The translations under genes and the position numbers were made by a program. DNA of 64,000 nt from Clostridiales bacterium (lineage in GTDB: Bacteria; Bacillota; Clostridia; Christensenellales; Borkfalkiaceae): positions 6,628 to 70,627 of the forward strand of contig SVHK01000001.1 of assembly GCA_015055865.1 (NCBI GenBank), read 5' to 3'. The notes beneath the pieces are model-generated. The model searched no databases. It saw only the letters and a program-made list of their open reading frames with translations, and had not been told where the DNA came from. This document shows, piece after piece, positions 39,133-61,291 of this stretch (the stretch's first letter is position 1; each line of letters begins with the position of its first letter).

Positions 39133-39500
39133 GTATTACTCGTCAACTGAGCAACGTCCCGTTGCATCGAGTCTTTCTATCTTTCCGCTACGCTTGGGTG
39201 TTACCTACTCGTCAACCAACCAAGCCTGTGCTTGGCGTTAGATACGAGCAAGACAAGAAGAGCGAGCATTTTCGCAGGGAGCGTACTTAGGCGTACGCGA
39301 CCAAAACGCACGCAGTTGCGACAATTATACGATTAAGCGTTATAGCCGTGCTTGGCGTTAGATACGAGCAAGACAAGGAAAGCGAGCATTTTCGCAGGGA
39401 GCGTACTAAATCGTACGCGACCAAGAAAACGCGGAGCTTGACGCAGTATTGCGAAGTATATAACGTCAAGCGTTATAATTGCGACGGTTATACGATTAAA
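39133..39500. repeat. Modular intergenic repeat, locus B (M1 unit followed by two M2 units at a 120-nt period)
   Basis: M1 spans 39133-39225, M2 39230-39345 and M2 39350-39500. The two M2 copies share gcttggcgttagatacgagcaagacaag-a-agcgagcattttcgcagggagcgtac. The locus lies between the T-box terminator and the pheS RBS. Confidence 0.85.
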
Positions 39501-50619: not shown

Positions 50620-50862
50620 GAAGTATTGCGACCAAGCTCGTGCTTAATCGGAGAACCGAGCAACAACGTCCCGTTGTATCGAGTTTTTCTATCTTTCTTT
50701 TGCGGTTTGATTGTTCGCACTCGTAACTGACCAAAGCAGTGTTTAATCGGAGAACCGAGCAAGACAAGGAAAGCGAGCATTTTCGCAGGGAGCGTACTAA
50801 ATCGTACGTGACCAAGAAAACGCGGAGCTCGACGCAGTATTGCGACGGTTATACGATTAAGC
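50620..50862. repeat. Modular intergenic repeat, locus C (M2 tail, variant M1, variant M2)
   Basis: It shares the M1 core gagcaacaacgtcccgttgtatcgag..ttctatcttt and the M2 core gagcaagacaaggaaagcgagcattttcgcagggagcgtactaaatcgtacg with loci B and D. It starts 18 nt upstream of the uvrB ATG. Confidence 0.85.
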
Positions 50863-54458: not shown

Positions 54459-54525
54459 GCAACGTTCCGTTGCATCAACTTTTTTTCTATCTTTTCGTTA
54501 CGCTAAAGCGTTGCTTATTCGTCAA
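54459..54525. repeat. Degenerate M1-type repeat unit, locus E (murF-ddl spacer)
   Basis: gcaacgttccgttgcatcaac-ttttttctatcttttcgttacgct---gcgttgcttattcgtcaa aligns with M1 of locus B (39151-39215) by eye. Confidence 0.55.
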
Positions 54526-58890: not shown

Positions 58891-58941
58891 AAAAACACTC
58901 CGAATATTTATTGCAAATACCCCTTGCGTTCTTTACGAACG

Positions 58942-59060
58942 TTCTTTTCTCATCCGGACTATACCGTCGGTTTTGGAATTTCACCAAATCGGGAAACGTT
59001 TAAAACACGTTTCTTCGCAGACTTTACTGCCGGTGGGGAATTACGCCCCGCCCCAAAGAA
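58942..59060 (-). promoter_or_regulatory. FMN riboswitch (RFN element)
   Basis: On the minus strand it reads GGGGCGGGGCGUAAUUCCCCACCGGCAGUAAAGUCUGCGAAG...CCGAUUUGGUGAAAUUCCAAAACCGACGGUAUAGUCCGGAUGAGAAAAGAA, which matches the conserved RFN core blocks. Confidence 0.87.
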
Positions 59061-59074
59061 TATTTACGATATTT

Positions 59075-59123: not shown

Positions 59124-59467
59124 AAAAACAACCCTATAGTCGCTCTTCCTGTAGGGAATTGCGACAACTAAATAAATCCTTACGGATTTGTGATATTCGT
59201 CTAACGACGAGTGATATTGCCTTTCGGCAGTTATATTCGCCTGACGGCGAGTTAAGGATTTATTTAATATAACTTTGGCGTAGCCAAAATATAACTGCTT
59301 GTAAAACAAGCAATACAACTTTTAGCCACAAGGCTAAAAATATAACTTATTAAACTTAATCTTTTGTGGATAAGAAAAGCCCACCATATTTCGCTTTTTG
59401 CGAAGTATAGTGGGCTATACTTTTGTTATGAACTAAAAATCCCTAAGAGCGACTAAGGGTTGTTTTT
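59124..59467. repeat. Inverted-repeat-bounded element containing a tandem array of mini-hairpins (MITE-like element or structured RNA)
   Basis: The terminal inverted repeats are aaaaacaaccct(a)tagtcgctctt (59124-59147) and aagagcgactaagggttgttttt (59445-59467). Inside are 3 units of GTGATAT plus hairpin (59190-59250), 4 units of ATAYAAC plus hairpin (59267-59375) and a 17-bp terminator-like hairpin (59378-59416). Confidence 0.6.
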
Positions 59468-59494
59468 CTTTTTTTAATTTGAGAGCATAAGCCT

Positions 59495-59822
59495 GCTTGG
59501 CGTTAGATACGAGCAACAACGTCCCGTTGTATCGAGTCTTTCTATCTTTCCGCTACGCTTGGGTGTTGCCTTCTCGTCAACCAAGCTCTTGCTTGGCGTT
59601 AGCTACGAGCAACAACGTCCCGTTGTATCGAGCCTTTCTATCTTTCCGCTACGCTTGGGAGTTGCCTTCTCGTCAACCAATTAAACTCGTGCTTGGCGTT
59701 AGATACGAGTAAGACAAGGCGTATTGAGTACGCCGACGGGAGTTTACTTTATCGTAAACGAGCTAGGCGCACGGAAATACAACGCAGTATTACGAAGTAT
59801 ATAACGCCAAGAGAACGTCAAG
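59495..59822. repeat. Modular intergenic repeat, locus D (two M1 units at a 96-nt period plus a divergent M2-like unit)
   Basis: M1 at 59495-59586 and M1 at 59591-59680 differ at 3 of the first 90 positions. A third unit starts with the same gcttggcgttagatacgag arm at 59691. The locus lies directly downstream of the histidine kinase stop. Confidence 0.85.
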
Positions 59823-59824
59823 AG

Positions 59825-61291
59825 TTAGTTAAAATAGACGTAAAAGGTCGAACCTTCCCCCACCTTACTATCCACACCGAAATTGAAGTTGTGTTTTTCT
59901 AAAATACTTTTGACGATGGAAAGCCCTAAACCCGTACCGTTCACGGGTCGTTTATGCGTTTCGCCCGAACGGTAATACCTATCCCAAATAGTAGAAAGTT
60001 CTTCTTTTTTTATACCTTTACCCGTATCGCGGACGGAGAACTTAACGGTGGAATTTTCACGTTTTAAGCTGATATATACCTTTTTATCGTCGCCCGTGTA
60101 GTTGACGGCGTTCCCGATTAAATTGTATAAAACTTGACCGATTTTTATTTCGTCCGCTTGAATGAATAAGCCGTCGTCAATGTCAAGCAAAAAGGTATAC
60201 CCTTTGTTTTCAACAAGGTAAACGAACCTGTCTAACACGTCGTATAAATAACTCGACACGTCGAATTTTGTTATTTTTAAAGCATCTAACCCCGAACGGA
60301 TTTTGGACAAATCCAACACGTCGGAAACGAGCGAAGTAAGCCTATCTGCTTCGTCTTCGATAACTTGTGCGTGCTTATTGCGTTTTTCGGGATTATCGCC
60401 CGAAATTTCGCGTATCATCGACGCGTACGCCTTAATCATCGTCAACGGCGTTTTGAAATCGTGCGAAACGTTCGCAATCAATTCCTTTTGCATTTTATCC
60501 GCCTTTGAAATTTCGTCGCGCGCAAAATTTAGCGTACCTGCTAATTCAACGATTTCGTCGCCGTACGCCCCGTCACTGAAATCGACTTCATAATCCCCCC
60601 TTGCAAACCGCCGAGTTTTTTCAGTGAGCATCGTCAAGGGTTTGACGAGCGCGCCCGAAATCGCGCTGGATACCGCAAAAGAAAGAATAAATACGAGCAA
60701 CGCAATCAAAATCATTCGAACGGTCATTTGCCCCATAACGCCGTGTAAAAACTGTAAATCGGTATTCACGTAAAGGTAAATGGGTTGTCCGTCGTAAAAA
60801 CCAAGCGACGCGCCGTAGACGTATTCGCGCGAAGCAGAATATACGACTGATTTACCGCCGTTTTGTTTGAGTTTTTCAAGCAAAATACGCGCTTCTTGTG
60901 CGTAGTCGCTACGGAAAGTATCACCGCCGTCATCGGAGATTCCGCCGTTGGGCGAATATACTTTTCCGTCCGCGCCGAGAATACAAACGTTGACGTCGTT
61001 AGAAGAACTTAAGTAACGAATGAACTCGCTGAACTGTTCGCTTTCTAAATCGTACAAGGAAGTGCGCGCCAAAACCGTTTCGATTTGCTTACCCTTTTCA
61101 ACGAGCGTTTTTTCCGTTTGACGTTCGTAAGTTTCACGAATGAGATAGCTTTGCGAAAAGGAAACTAAAAGTACGATTAAAAAAGAAAAAAGCGCGAACG
61201 CCGACCAAAGCAAAAAGTAAATACTTCCGCTTTTTTGTTTCGCTCGCGTCGCGCCTCGCTTAATTTTCGCTCTGAATTTTCCGTTCGCCAT
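59825..61291 (-). CDS. Sensor histidine kinase (TM-sensor-TM-HAMP-HisKA-HATPase_c)
   Basis: It has the H-box VSHDFKTPLTMI, N-box LIGNAVNYT and G-boxes DTGKGI / GTGLGLSIV. Confidence 0.9.
   Translation of the reverse strand: MANGKFRAKIKRGATRAKQKSGSIYFLLWSAFALFSFLIVLLVSFSQSYLIRETYERQTEKTLVEKGKQIETVLARTSLYDLESEQFSEFIRYLSSSNDVNVCILGADGKVYSPNGGISDDGGDTFRSDYAQEARILLEKLKQNGGKSVVYSASREYVYGASLGFYDGQPIYLYVNTDLQFLHGVMGQMTVRMILIALLVFILSFAVSSAISGALVKPLTMLTEKTRRFARGDYEVDFSDGAYGDEIVELAGTLNFARDEISKADKMQKELIANVSHDFKTPLTMIKAYASMIREISGDNPEKRNKHAQVIEDEADRLTSLVSDVLDLSKIRSGLDALKITKFDVSSYLYDVLDRFVYLVENKGYTFLLDIDDGLFIQADEIKIGQVLYNLIGNAVNYTGDDKKVYISLKRENSTVKFSVRDTGKGIKKEELSTIWDRYYRSGETHKRPVNGTGLGLSIVKSILEKHNFNFGVDSKVGEGSTFYVYFN

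Follow-up and report, generated by a model that had tools for sequence, protein, structure and literature searches.

The 340-bp region at positions 59124-59467 of the window (the whole 64,000-nt stretch of Clostridiales DNA that was analysed) is very likely an orphan copy of a dyad-symmetric hairpin-array family of gut Clostridia, in which the Gut-1 RNA is the better conserved half. The plus strand of 59165-59241 matches the Gut-1 covariance model over its full length with 53.2 bits (E = 1.4e-8; gathering score 50), and the model alignment contains the three tandem hairpins on GUGAWAU linkers by which Gut-1 is recognised. The Gut-1 RNA motif (Rfam RF01706; Weinberg et al. 2010, PMC2864571) is classed by Rfam as an sRNA. 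It has been an Rfam orphan since 2010, listed “only from human gut” and without organism, function or partner, and no published function or partner was found in our literature search. The earlier note on this DNA did not recognise the left half of the element as this motif. The window shares with Gut-1 the tandem hairpins, the GUGAWAU joins and the gut-metagenome habitat, and the original seed sequences have the two-array layout in their flanks. However, the published motif is the conserved half alone, whereas the real unit, with extra modules on the 5' and 3' sides, is about two to four times as long, dyad-symmetric and multicopy, and is found at the 3' ends of operons. The Gut-1 motif is half of a larger dyad-symmetric element.

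The window element is flanked by the end of the histidine-kinase operon (59825) on one side and by the ribU/FMN-riboswitch promoter (59103-59075) on the other, as described before. It is non-coding and folds on itself on either strand; the fold of a 363-nt stretch reaches −130 kcal/mol compared with −70 ± 4.8 kcal/mol in shuffles (z = −12.7). Within an outer inverted repeat, the region contains a nested inverted repeat of 14 bp and two mini-hairpin series on constant 7-nt linkers. The outer arms of about 23 nt that the earlier note reported were found at 59125-59147 and 59445-59467 (23 nt, 78% complementary, outermost 12 nt perfect), and in the minimum-free-energy fold the outer closing helix reaches ~28 bp in three segments on either strand. 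The left arm of this closing stem (59124-59147, an A-tract and AACCCTATAGTCGCTCTT, from the inverted-repeat search and the fold) is not a repeat in relatives: its outer half is locus-specific flank and its inner half overlaps a conserved 5' module. This module is a plus-strand hairpin, TAGTCGCTCTTCC-TGTA-GGGAATTGCGAC (59137-59165), kept in the window-type subfamily, with the compensatory variant GCCGAGTCCCT-ACA-AGGGATTCGGC. In the fold its TAGGGA is able to pair with the TCCCTA of a conserved 3' tail (..ACTTTTGTTATGAACTAAAAATCCCTAAG, 59423-59451, plus strand, from family comparison). The right arm of the closing stem (AAGAGCGACTAAGGGTTG and a T-tract, 59445-59476) is specific to this locus and species and is missing in the strain variant L004.

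Between these ends lie two domains, a conserved unpaired segment and a large hairpin. Domain I (59169-59266, plus strand), obtained from the inverted-repeat search and from the consensus fold of 15 relatives, is closed by the nested pair 59169-59182/59253-59266, which is indeed 14 nt long and 100% complementary. Inside the nested stem are the hairpins H2 (59197-59210), H3 (59218-59229) and H4 (59237-59250), carried by the linkers GTGATAT (59190 and 59211) and GTTATAT (59230), to which the repeat search assigns a period of 20 × 3; the GTGATAT-plus-hairpin series proposed earlier is thereby borne out. Covariation, recommended as a check, was seen as compensatory pairs in H2 and H4 in the consensus fold of the 15-sequence subfamily alignment. 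A further local hairpin, H1 (AAATCC-TTAC-GGATTT, 59174-59189), had been overlooked; its 5' arm doubles as the 5' arm of the nested repeat, to which it is an alternative. Domain II (59267-59346, plus strand) is an inverted heptamer array with the hairpins H5 (59274-59288), H6 (59296-59312) and H7 (59320-59339) and the linkers ATATAAC (59267, 59289 and 59340) and ATACAAC (59313), spaced by 22, 24 and 27 nt. Across the window ATAYAAC occurs 24 times against 14.8 expected, a count attained in 0 of 100 shuffles. The earlier description of four ATAYAAC units at a spacing of 22-27 nt thus stands for the linkers, whereas the fourth hairpin (cttat...ataag) is weak and corresponds in relatives to a conserved sequence (ATCTTTTGTGGATAAG) and not to a covarying stem. 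It belongs to the conserved unpaired segment (..AATCTTTTGTGGATAAG.., 59347-59374, plus strand, from family comparison). GTTATAT is the reverse complement of ATATAAC, so both series are one heptamer in opposite orientations. The element is therefore dyad-symmetric, and the window copy holds seven heptamers in two complementary versions.

The large conserved hairpin (59372-59422, arms 59372-59394/59400-59422) is supported by its inverted repeat and by relatives, which show compensatory changes (GCCCACC/GGTGGGC vs GCACACT/AGTGTGC). It contains one G:T and one A:C on either strand, and is followed by TTTCTTATCC on the minus strand, where it is terminator-like, and by ACTTTTGTT on the plus strand. 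The inverted repeat that had been read as a minus-strand terminator is therefore present and terminator-like, but it is a conserved module of the element that changes in a compensatory manner. A large hairpin followed by GUGAUAUU is non-canonical as an intrinsic terminator.

Searching for the periodicity of the array, as the earlier note had suggested, led to a large family in gut Clostridia, so that the element is not unique to this locus. The first collection pattern, GTGAWAT × 3, gave mainly chance matches and tandem repeats and was tightened afterwards; of 119 genome loci among the matches listed, 100 proved to be genuine hairpin arrays, with Clostridia metagenome-assembled genomes (MAGs) as the sole source. 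The element is very common in genomes of Oscillospiraceae, Acutalibacteraceae, Christensenellaceae, Ruminococcus and Lachnospiraceae from human and animal guts; cultured carriers include Butyrivibrio crossotus and Roseburia sp. AF12-17LB. At least 11 MAGs contain it on two or more contigs and several loci have two elements, and copies of one MAG are strongly diverged with unrelated hairpins (L148 vs L158). A phage origin was rejected because viral contigs are almost without hairpin arrays: only one of 108 pattern matches in 2.9 million viral contigs was one.

The family has a common plan, in which a conserved GTGATAT array lies opposite an inverted ATATCAC array (4 and 3-4 linkers, respectively) and the linkers are separated by variable, near-perfect Watson-Crick hairpins. 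The loops of one half are rich in pyrimidines, those of the other GNA/GNRA-like (56 members). At one locus, L133, the opposite strand of the variable half also matches Gut-1. The combination of constant linker, variable stem and kept pairing that the earlier note pointed out holds family-wide, with 1034 Watson-Crick pairs compared with 10 G:T and 15 A:C in the stems of 56 members, in addition to the compensatory pairs in 15 sequences. The G:T and A:C counts give no G:U strand bias, and inference of the RNA strand from wobble pairs was consequently rejected. The heptamer of the variable half is ~90% invariant across several Clostridia families and its adjoining stems are free to vary. Variant heptamers tend to occur as complementary pairs across both halves of one element, a tendency that is uncorrected for shared ancestry.

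At this locus the element is a gain of this lineage; relatives carry an ordinary terminator at the corresponding position ahead of the ribU promoter. In four relatives whose RibU is 70-79% identical, the intergenic region between the HK/PRC genes and ribU contains no element; a plain terminator occupies the site in L326 and L331, and none was found in L329. Assemblies are rearranged beside the window element. A miniature inverted-repeat transposable element (MITE) with the 23-nt repeats as its termini, or a DNA switch that inverts between them, would fit the 297 bp flanked by inverted repeats, the empty orthologous site and these rearranged assemblies. It is nevertheless highly improbable and largely refuted. 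The repeat sequence occurs once in the window and is absent from the closest relatives (L172, L163 and L333-L345), which share the internal modules, so that the repeats are not common to the copies. L004 retains the left arm and the sequence as far as ~59433 but has no right arm, and the copies are not near-identical. The proposed check for target-site duplications showed none: the flanks are complementary (A-tract ... T-tract) and not direct. Strand-changing joints at the repeats were absent from four runs (three DNA metagenomes and one metatranscriptome), whose contigs drop rare variants. Thus, of the earlier suggestion of a mobile element, it holds that the element was gained, is dispersed and, as an orphan copy, lacks the gene that the unit has elsewhere, but the 23-nt repeats are not its ends. 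The long repeat is an extension, in this locus only, of the conserved closing helix and not a transposon end. Locus-specific outer stems with A/T tracts were found in the window, L345, L339, L340 and L335, and outer repeats exceeded the mismatched-flank control in L148, L154 and L197. As a family-wide trait the outer repeat was rejected, since only about 8-9 of 46 elements exceeded the 95th percentile of the controls with mismatched flanks. For genome annotation, hairpin arrays of this kind explain why assemblies break or are rearranged where they occur.

The element is present in RNA. Element contigs were found in five metatranscriptome runs, and at ≥99% identity their coverage is limited to 59154-59446 (all contigs are unstranded and DNA carry-over is possible). 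In the same assemblies ribU, the kinase gene and the neighbouring 96-nt repeats have zero coverage at ≥99% identity; the adjacent 96-nt repeat is abundant in DNA runs and almost absent from RNA runs. The coverage of the element by RNA-run contigs is comparable to that of the FMN riboswitch leader. Co-oriented genes, tRNA or rRNA operons end shortly before the family copies. The neighbouring gene is directed into the conserved half in 37 of 42 cases, and within the window-type subfamily all 11 cases have a co-oriented upstream gene. A tRNA gene lies 14-59 nt past the conserved half in 14 of 56 elements, and within 250 nt in 15 of 56, with constant relative orientation; Gut-1 matches share the strand with upstream tRNA and rRNA genes. 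The operon 3' ends marked in this way include rRNA, tRNA, rplL and groEL, and no shared functional theme was found among the neighbouring genes, whose functions are diverse. The window copy is atypical in that its conserved half faces the divergent ribU promoter and not the 3' end of a co-oriented gene. In our view the element is probably a transcribed 3'-end module.

The RNA coverage, similar to that of the riboswitch leader with zero for the flanking genes, would also suit a free-standing trans-acting sRNA, as which Gut-1 was first proposed, whose single-stranded heptamers sponge or scaffold some other RNA-binding protein or RNA, and for which the four-helix-bundle gene described below is an unrelated hitch-hiker. 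Rfam puts Gut-1 among the sRNAs, the structure of each copy is preserved through compensatory change, and the nested stem ends in a few wobble pairs that are compatible with the Gut-1 strand only. One locus, L172, shows a good promoter (TTGGCG-18-TATAAT) immediately before the 5' module. However, we found no convincing promoter for the window copy, and most copies are situated 12-100 nt behind a co-oriented gene, which leaves too little space for one. One RNA would have to hold the motif in two complementary versions, the stems lack a G:U strand bias, and the four-helix-bundle gene adjoins the element too precisely and too repeatedly for chance. We therefore consider such an sRNA unlikely.

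The sites at operon 3' ends, including those of rRNA, tRNA, rplL and groEL, would also be expected of a purely structural cis element, that is, a two-way terminator, insulator or 3'-end RNA stabiliser resembling REP/BIME or BOX, which requires no dedicated trans factor and keeps its heptamers solely through common descent or gene conversion. The terminator-like flanking hairpins with their A and T tracts, the locus-specific outer stems, the outer repeats above control in L148, L154 and L197 and the plain terminator of relatives at the position of the window element all agree with this explanation, and perfect palindromes fit the use of two strands. Against it stand the ~90% invariance of the heptamer in the variable half in spite of changing stems, and an architecture far more elaborate than termination requires; in this exclusive form we regard it as improbable.

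About one in ten elements carries a gene for a four-helix-bundle protein of 117-120 aa, assigned to the Avd-like family (TIGR02436/PF05635) with 110 bits. The closest solved relative is 2RLD, a PDB entry with five chains. This gene is directly preceded by a complete element in 6 of 6 protein clusters, which cover 5 of 5 independently sampled loci, and 7 of 8 gene copies within element-bearing loci abut the end of the variable half. Clustering of 842 ORFs revealed no further gene family tied to the element. None of the called genes beside the four-helix-bundle genes contains a reverse-transcriptase domain, and a four-helix-bundle gene was not found in the 64-kb window. An assignment of PF05635 as a HEPN domain found no support in the survey paper on HEPN domains. 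Comparison of L337 with L338 makes the gene appear as a cassette inserted beside the array, and the adjacency could simply mark a favoured insertion place of a mobile gene cassette. As a partner that binds the heptamers the four-helix-bundle protein is a tentative candidate, and its gene provides the first testable partner for the Gut-1 motif.

In four of the five gene-bearing loci sampled, the last heptamer touches a -35-like TTGAAA box with a TATAAT box ~17-19 nt downstream. This arrangement would be expected if the heptamers formed a duplex-DNA operator or iteron array for a regulator of the adjacent promoter, here that of ribU and elsewhere that of the four-helix-bundle gene. The heptamer spacing of 19-24 bp, about two helical turns, the presence of the heptamer in both orientations and the concerted variants across the halves are consistent with it. 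However, duplex binding leaves unexplained why the spacers are perfect palindromes kept by compensatory change, and most copies have no adjacent promoter. The window array stops more than 30 bp short of the ribU -35 box, and it does so on the opposite half of the element from that in gene-bearing copies. For iterons the phasing fits, but the structured spacers and the absence of a rep gene do not. We consider an operator or iteron array to be quite improbable.

The reading that we prefer, to which we give about even chances, is a non-coding 3'-end module whose linkers are putative multivalent sites for an oligomeric factor, most likely an Avd-like protein. In plus-strand order the 5' hairpin module is followed by a stem-closed domain of three hairpins on GUGAUAU-type linkers, by three or four mutually unrelated hairpins that the complementary heptamer (AUAUMAC) connects, by the large hairpin and by a 3' tail that returns to pair with the 5' module. 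Acting in cis, the stacked perfect hairpins, the long-range stem and the A/T tracts might constitute a two-way 3'-end, terminator or insulator module, into which transcription would run from both DNA strands. Transcription of both strands into the element could explain why it is dyad-symmetric and almost free of wobble pairs. An invariant heptamer between varying stems calls for sequence-specific reading. Constant heptamers, regularly spaced by arbitrary hairpins, would be multivalent recognition sites for a trans-acting oligomeric factor. Since GUGAUAU and AUAUCAC cannot both be read by one single-stranded-RNA reader, either duplex DNA would be recognised, or both strands used, or linkers paired with linkers. 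The best candidate factor is the Avd-like four-helix-bundle protein, the gene of which directly follows “complete” family members. The window copy, which has no such gene, would be served in trans, in analogy to orphan REP doublets that rely on a single RAYT gene.

It is possible, and we propose it with caution, that a stand-alone, probably pentameric Avd-like protein has its cognate nucleic acid in the Gut-1 arrays, the two forming an undescribed module of gut Clostridia. Such a module might comprise one small gene and many orphan arrays, with the window array served in trans. With arbitrary hairpins as spacers, each array might offer the oligomer's subunits a set of four or five identical heptamers, and hairpin units might be gained, lost and replaced faster than the gene changes. 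Through the tight coupling of the arrays to the equally enigmatic stand-alone Avd-like genes, a very abundant metagenome family, two old unknowns turn into one testable pair.

Several other models were tried and rejected. A “rod”, in which left and right linkers pair into a ladder of four-way junctions, is topologically incompatible with the nested stem favoured by the minimum-free-energy folds, and two of its three linker pairs mismatch in the window. Positional complementarity in the subfamily is 24 of 36 (~45% expected), and through the concerted heptamer variants the rod survives as a minor option. An internal promoter of canonical elements (T+TGAAAC -16- TGaTATTAT), plausible by eye, is missing in the window-type subfamily, which has GTT for GTG. 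Compared with known sites, namely the omega-protein heptad WATCACW of pSM19035, the integron attC core GTTRRRY/RYYYAAC, the lambda Int arm site, the DnaA box, parS, dif and Ter, the heptamer has only 4-6 bases in common or the wrong arrangement.

Among known systems, the REP/BIME sequences of enterobacteria and Pseudomonas are extragenic palindromic mosaics at operon 3' ends, with inverted units and short conserved linkers, and in REPIN-RAYT systems many orphan copies exist compared with few beside the one associated gene. Our element is likewise extragenic, lies at 3' ends of transcription units and has units in inverted orientation. However, REP elements conserve the sequence of their stems, whereas in our element freely varying stems alternate with fixed linkers, and RAYT is a Y1 (HUH) transposase in contrast to a four-helix-bundle protein of 117-120 aa. 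The BOX repeats of Streptococcus pneumoniae are modular non-coding A-Bn-C repeats with a variable number of internal modules. Both are modular, transcribed and strongly folded with paired ends, but BOX modules are sequence-conserved, ~45-60 nt long and without heptamer-hairpin periodicity or associated gene. Sponge sRNAs of the CsrB/RsmZ type present many copies of one single-stranded motif to a known cognate protein and have their own promoter and terminator. The window element has seven heptamers, although in two complementary versions, and no convincing promoter was found in the window; the protein sponge suggested earlier may still apply in the form of a protein-binding platform. TRAP, a ring-shaped 11-mer, reads triplets separated by 2-3-nt spacers in the trp leader RNA; as a working analogy only, a homo-oligomer would here too read short identical motifs irrespective of spacer sequence, although the spacers of the element are hairpins and binding is putative. 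Intervening sequences of 23S rRNA are stem-closed hairpin-loop insertions that can carry a PF05635 ORF, whereas our elements are not inside rRNA. In diversity-generating retroelements, Avd acts bound to a structured non-coding RNA (PMC10053308). The loci with a four-helix-bundle gene differ from these retroelements in having no reverse transcriptase and no template/variable repeat pair; the protein associated with the element nevertheless belongs to the Avd fold family.

The element at 59124-59467 lies between the 3' end of a minus-strand response-regulator/histidine-kinase operon, whose kinase gene ends at 59825, and the minus-strand promoter TTGACT-17-TATAAT (59103-59075) serving an ECF riboflavin S-component gene (ribU), where the earlier note had placed it. 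A canonical FMN riboswitch (58938-59064, minus strand, 113 bits) precedes ribU, which is followed by tsaE and a TsaD-family gene, likely tsaB. The observation of that note is real. A repeat finder recovered the outer 23-nt inverted repeat (arms 59125-59147 and 59445-59467; complementarity 78% overall and complete over the outer 12 nt), the nested inverted pair as a perfect 14-nt repeat, and a large 23-nt hairpin at 59372-59422. The constant 7-nt linkers (heptamers) had been positioned correctly, and both series of linker-spaced hairpins are present, but the first hairpin (59174-59189) had been overlooked and the last one listed for the second series is unsupported. Folding of 363 nt as a single strand gave −130 kcal/mol (z = −12.7) for the plus and −133 kcal/mol (z = −12.1) for the minus strand, with one shared architecture of a closing stem of ~28 bp, a stem-closed three-hairpin domain, three more hairpins and the large hairpin. 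ATATAAC, the second linker, is GTTATAT in reverse complement, so the element has dyad symmetry.

In Rfam, plus-strand positions 59165-59241 are identified as Gut-1 RNA (RF01706; 53.2 bits against a threshold of 50), a family introduced in 2010 on the basis of 43 sequences from human-gut metagenomes and given a single sentence of comment (PMC2864571). No later paper on Gut-1 was found in our literature search. The larger two-array pattern is already visible, undescribed, in its authors' own alignment with flanks: GUGAUAU hairpins are followed by a run of AUAUCAC hairpins, the nested repeat employs the 5' arm of the first hairpin, and one case has an outer repeat of differing sequence. When 185,579 species genomes were scanned for the exact pattern, at least 119 loci emerged. 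Among the loci listed, 100 of 119 are true hairpin arrays, every one from Bacillota/Clostridia MAGs of human and animal guts (Oscillospiraceae, Acutalibacteraceae, Christensenellaceae, Ruminococcus and Lachnospiraceae including Roseburia and Butyrivibrio crossotus); the nine non-Clostridia matches among them are chance matches or tandem repeats. Viral contigs are essentially free of the element, with one hairpin array in 108 pattern matches. Single-array variants, in which the inverted second array is absent, consist of four or five GTGATAT hairpins terminating in GTTNNGGAATATTCC (L193, L224 (Butyrivibrio crossotus), L147 and L203 (Christensenella MAGs)); in L193 the unit is tandemly duplicated and each copy scores 66.8 bits as Gut-1.

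Across 56 complete two-array elements, the conserved half, which is the Gut-1 half, typically contains four GTGATAT linkers (exact in 201 of 223) and is followed by the variable half with three to four ATATCAC/ATATAAC linkers. In 177 of 201 hairpins the first base is T and the last is A. The stems comprise 1034 Watson-Crick pairs versus 10 G:T and 15 A:C; one half has loops rich in pyrimidines, and the loops of the other half resemble GAA/GTAA/GCAA. Thus, each half looks alike when read outside-inwards on its own strand, which fits the finding that the "variable" half of locus L133 also scores as Gut-1 on the opposite strand (52 bits with the Rfam model). Variant heptamers tend to occur as complementary pairs across both halves of one element (GTTATAT/ATATAAC, odds ratio 14.7, p = 0.002; GTGTTAT/ATAACAC, odds ratio 8.6, p = 0.017; shared ancestry ignored in both). 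At least 11 MAGs supply two or more element contigs, and two elements occur together in several 8-kb loci. Hairpins are unrelated between copies of one MAG. The element's summed depth in DNA metagenomes exceeds that of the flanking genes 20- to 60-fold, and assembly breaks fall within it.

The element was gained in this lineage. Relatives with RibU 70-79% identical retain the order of kinase (or PRC-barrel gene) and ribU with only 250-310 intergenic nt, and at their ribU locus neither the array nor a 96-nt repeat that adjoins the element in the window was found. In two of them, 14 nt separate the ribU −35 box from an upstream plain terminator made of A-tract, stem and T-tract, which occupies the exact site of AAAAACAACCC...GGGTTGTTTTT in the window. 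In the relative L328, just 39 nt lie between the called genes for the kinase and RibU, and the riboswitch is therefore apparently absent from the locus. Three within-species contig variants have the stretch from ribU to ~59433 in common and diverge beyond, one of them (L004) without the right arm of the outer repeat. L002 and L004 code for the identical RibU protein, but in place of 59433-59830 of the window, to the right of the element, L002 shows an SRP54 (ffh) context and L004 has other small ORFs; the difference is either a strain-level rearrangement or an assembly chimera at the repeats.

The closest relatives of the window copy share the 5' module with a compensatory variant, the nested stem and arrays, the segment ATCTTTTGTGGATAAG, the large hairpin including compensatory changes, and the tail AAAATCCCTAAG. 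The 23-nt outer repeat was not found in them; their conserved outer feature is a short long-range pairing of TAGGGA with TCCCTA. By eye, about half of these subfamily loci (the window, L345, L339, L340 and L335) have a further locus-specific GC-rich stem with A-tract/T-tract, and among canonical elements outer repeats exceed a mismatched-flank control in L148, L154 and L197, with A/T tracts in L148 and L154. These observations fit insertion into or beside pre-existing two-way terminators, and they also fit selection for a closing helix; neither reading bears the signature of a transposon end. The mobile element bounded by terminal repeats that had been suggested earlier is wrong in detail and right in spirit: the window element is an orphan copy of a dispersed unit.

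Among the 56 elements, a tRNA gene ends 14-59 nt past the conserved half in 14 and within 250 nt in 15, always with tRNA, hairpin and Gut-1 on one strand; no tRNA gene was found on the variable-half side. In L152, a 23S-tRNA-tRNA-5S-tRNA operon ends in a tRNA gene that is immediately followed, on the operon's strand, by the element (2046-2853). Protein genes past the conserved half are directed into the element in 37 of 42 cases, and the opposite side is mixed. The element thus has a polarity and marks the 3' ends of transcription units. For the window-type subfamily, comprising 13 loci from metagenomes and two from Christensenellaceae MAGs, 11 of 11 upstream genes run in the same direction as the element, 12-213 nt away; by eye, most of these loci have just an A-rich spacer before the element, with no terminator hairpin. 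The neighbours (among them P-type ATPase, GDPD, AraC regulator, RecR, iPGM, GH35 enzyme, cysteine-synthase-like gene) have no common theme. The window copy is the exception: the divergent ribU promoter lies on the side of its conserved half, and the kinase operon reads into the variable half. In two loci the tRNA T-arm region recurs as an inverted copy across the element (18 nt in L133, upstream of the array; 13 nt in L171), giving long-range complementarity between the flanks.

Element contigs are present in five metatranscriptome runs from animal guts, where coverage at ≥99% identity is confined to 59154-59446. In the deepest RNA run the depth is 15-51 over the element and zero over ribU, the kinase gene and 59450-60300. 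The 96-nt repeat is a second dispersed intergenic family without Rfam match, present as 2.2 tandem units at 59494-59709 and, in incomplete form, at four more intergenic places in the window (39152-39251, 39349-39371, 50657-50697 and 54460-54525). In DNA runs its summed depth amounts to up to ~40% of that of the element, and in RNA runs it is nearly absent; its RNA/DNA ratio of 0.006, versus 0.13-0.16 for element and riboswitch, speaks against a simple carry-over of DNA. Contigs from RNA runs that belong to other copies extend 250-590 nt into the flanks, as expected from co-transcription with neighbours. All RNA runs are unstranded contigs, so coverage carries no strand information. Weak sequence hints favour the Gut-1 strand, namely wobble pairs at the nested-stem end, a good promoter in L172 and the lack of a terminator separating upstream genes from the element. 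The dyad symmetry, combined with the absence of any wobble bias, points to a role for both strands.

When all ORFs of element-bearing loci were clustered, the second most recurrent family was a protein of 117-120 amino acids that matches TIGR02436 "four helix bundle protein" (110 bits), has homologs with the precomputed Pfam assignment PF05635, and has the five-chain structure 2RLD as closest solved structure (E = 6e-32). Its gene starts 10-60 nt past the end of the variable half on the Gut-1 strand in seven of eight copies, the eighth being at a contig edge. Loci with the gene directly after a Gut-1-type two-array element are L130, L131, L138, L188, L190, L338, L344 and L346-L378. L337 and L338 represent one locus without and with the gene; in L338, a cassette of gene and promoter separates the last linker from the terminator. 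In a reverse test on six homologous protein clusters, chosen by contig number only and representing five different loci, a complete two-array element was located directly upstream of the gene in all five, preceded by rplL, groEL or the gene of an F5/8-type-C protein, a hexapeptide transferase or a TPM phosphatase. In four of the five, the last heptamer, ATATCAC or ATAACAC, abuts a TTGAAA −35-like box, followed by a spacer of ~17-19 nt, TATAAT, RBS and start codon. In L373 a TATAAT box directly follows the last heptamer, and in L375 no clear promoter was seen. With >7,600 clusters, many of them on contigs <2 kb, the protein family is very large; the gene is carried by about one element in ten, and the 64-kb window has none. 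At one locus, contigs with an identical protein differ in number and sequence of the variable hairpins (L356, L361, L364). Contigs L356, L358, L361, L362, L364 and L366 all represent this locus, with proteins that are identical or nearly so (clusters P0171 and P0205), and differ in the variable half, where three hairpin units, a single unit or an altered last hairpin (TCTGTACGAAAGTACAGA vs TCCGAGCATCGTTCGGA) are found. Hairpin units thus turn over faster than the gene.

We propose that hairpin stack, closing helix and A/T tracts could act as a two-way 3'-end, terminator or insulator module. The heptamers may be read by an oligomeric factor, as RNA, single-stranded DNA or duplex DNA, with the hairpins merely setting the spacing, which would explain constant linkers, free stem sequences and preserved pairing. 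The factor might be the four-helix-bundle protein, whose family is regarded as Avd-like in the DGR literature (PMC10053308), and orphan copies including that of the window would then be served in trans; this is the weakest point of the proposal, as the adjacency of gene and array could also reflect an insertion preference of a mobile gene cassette. The window element is an addition to a known but uncharacterised family, and the family-level findings on full architecture, genomic polarity, expression and coupling to the Avd-like gene raise its interest above that of an ordinary Rfam match.
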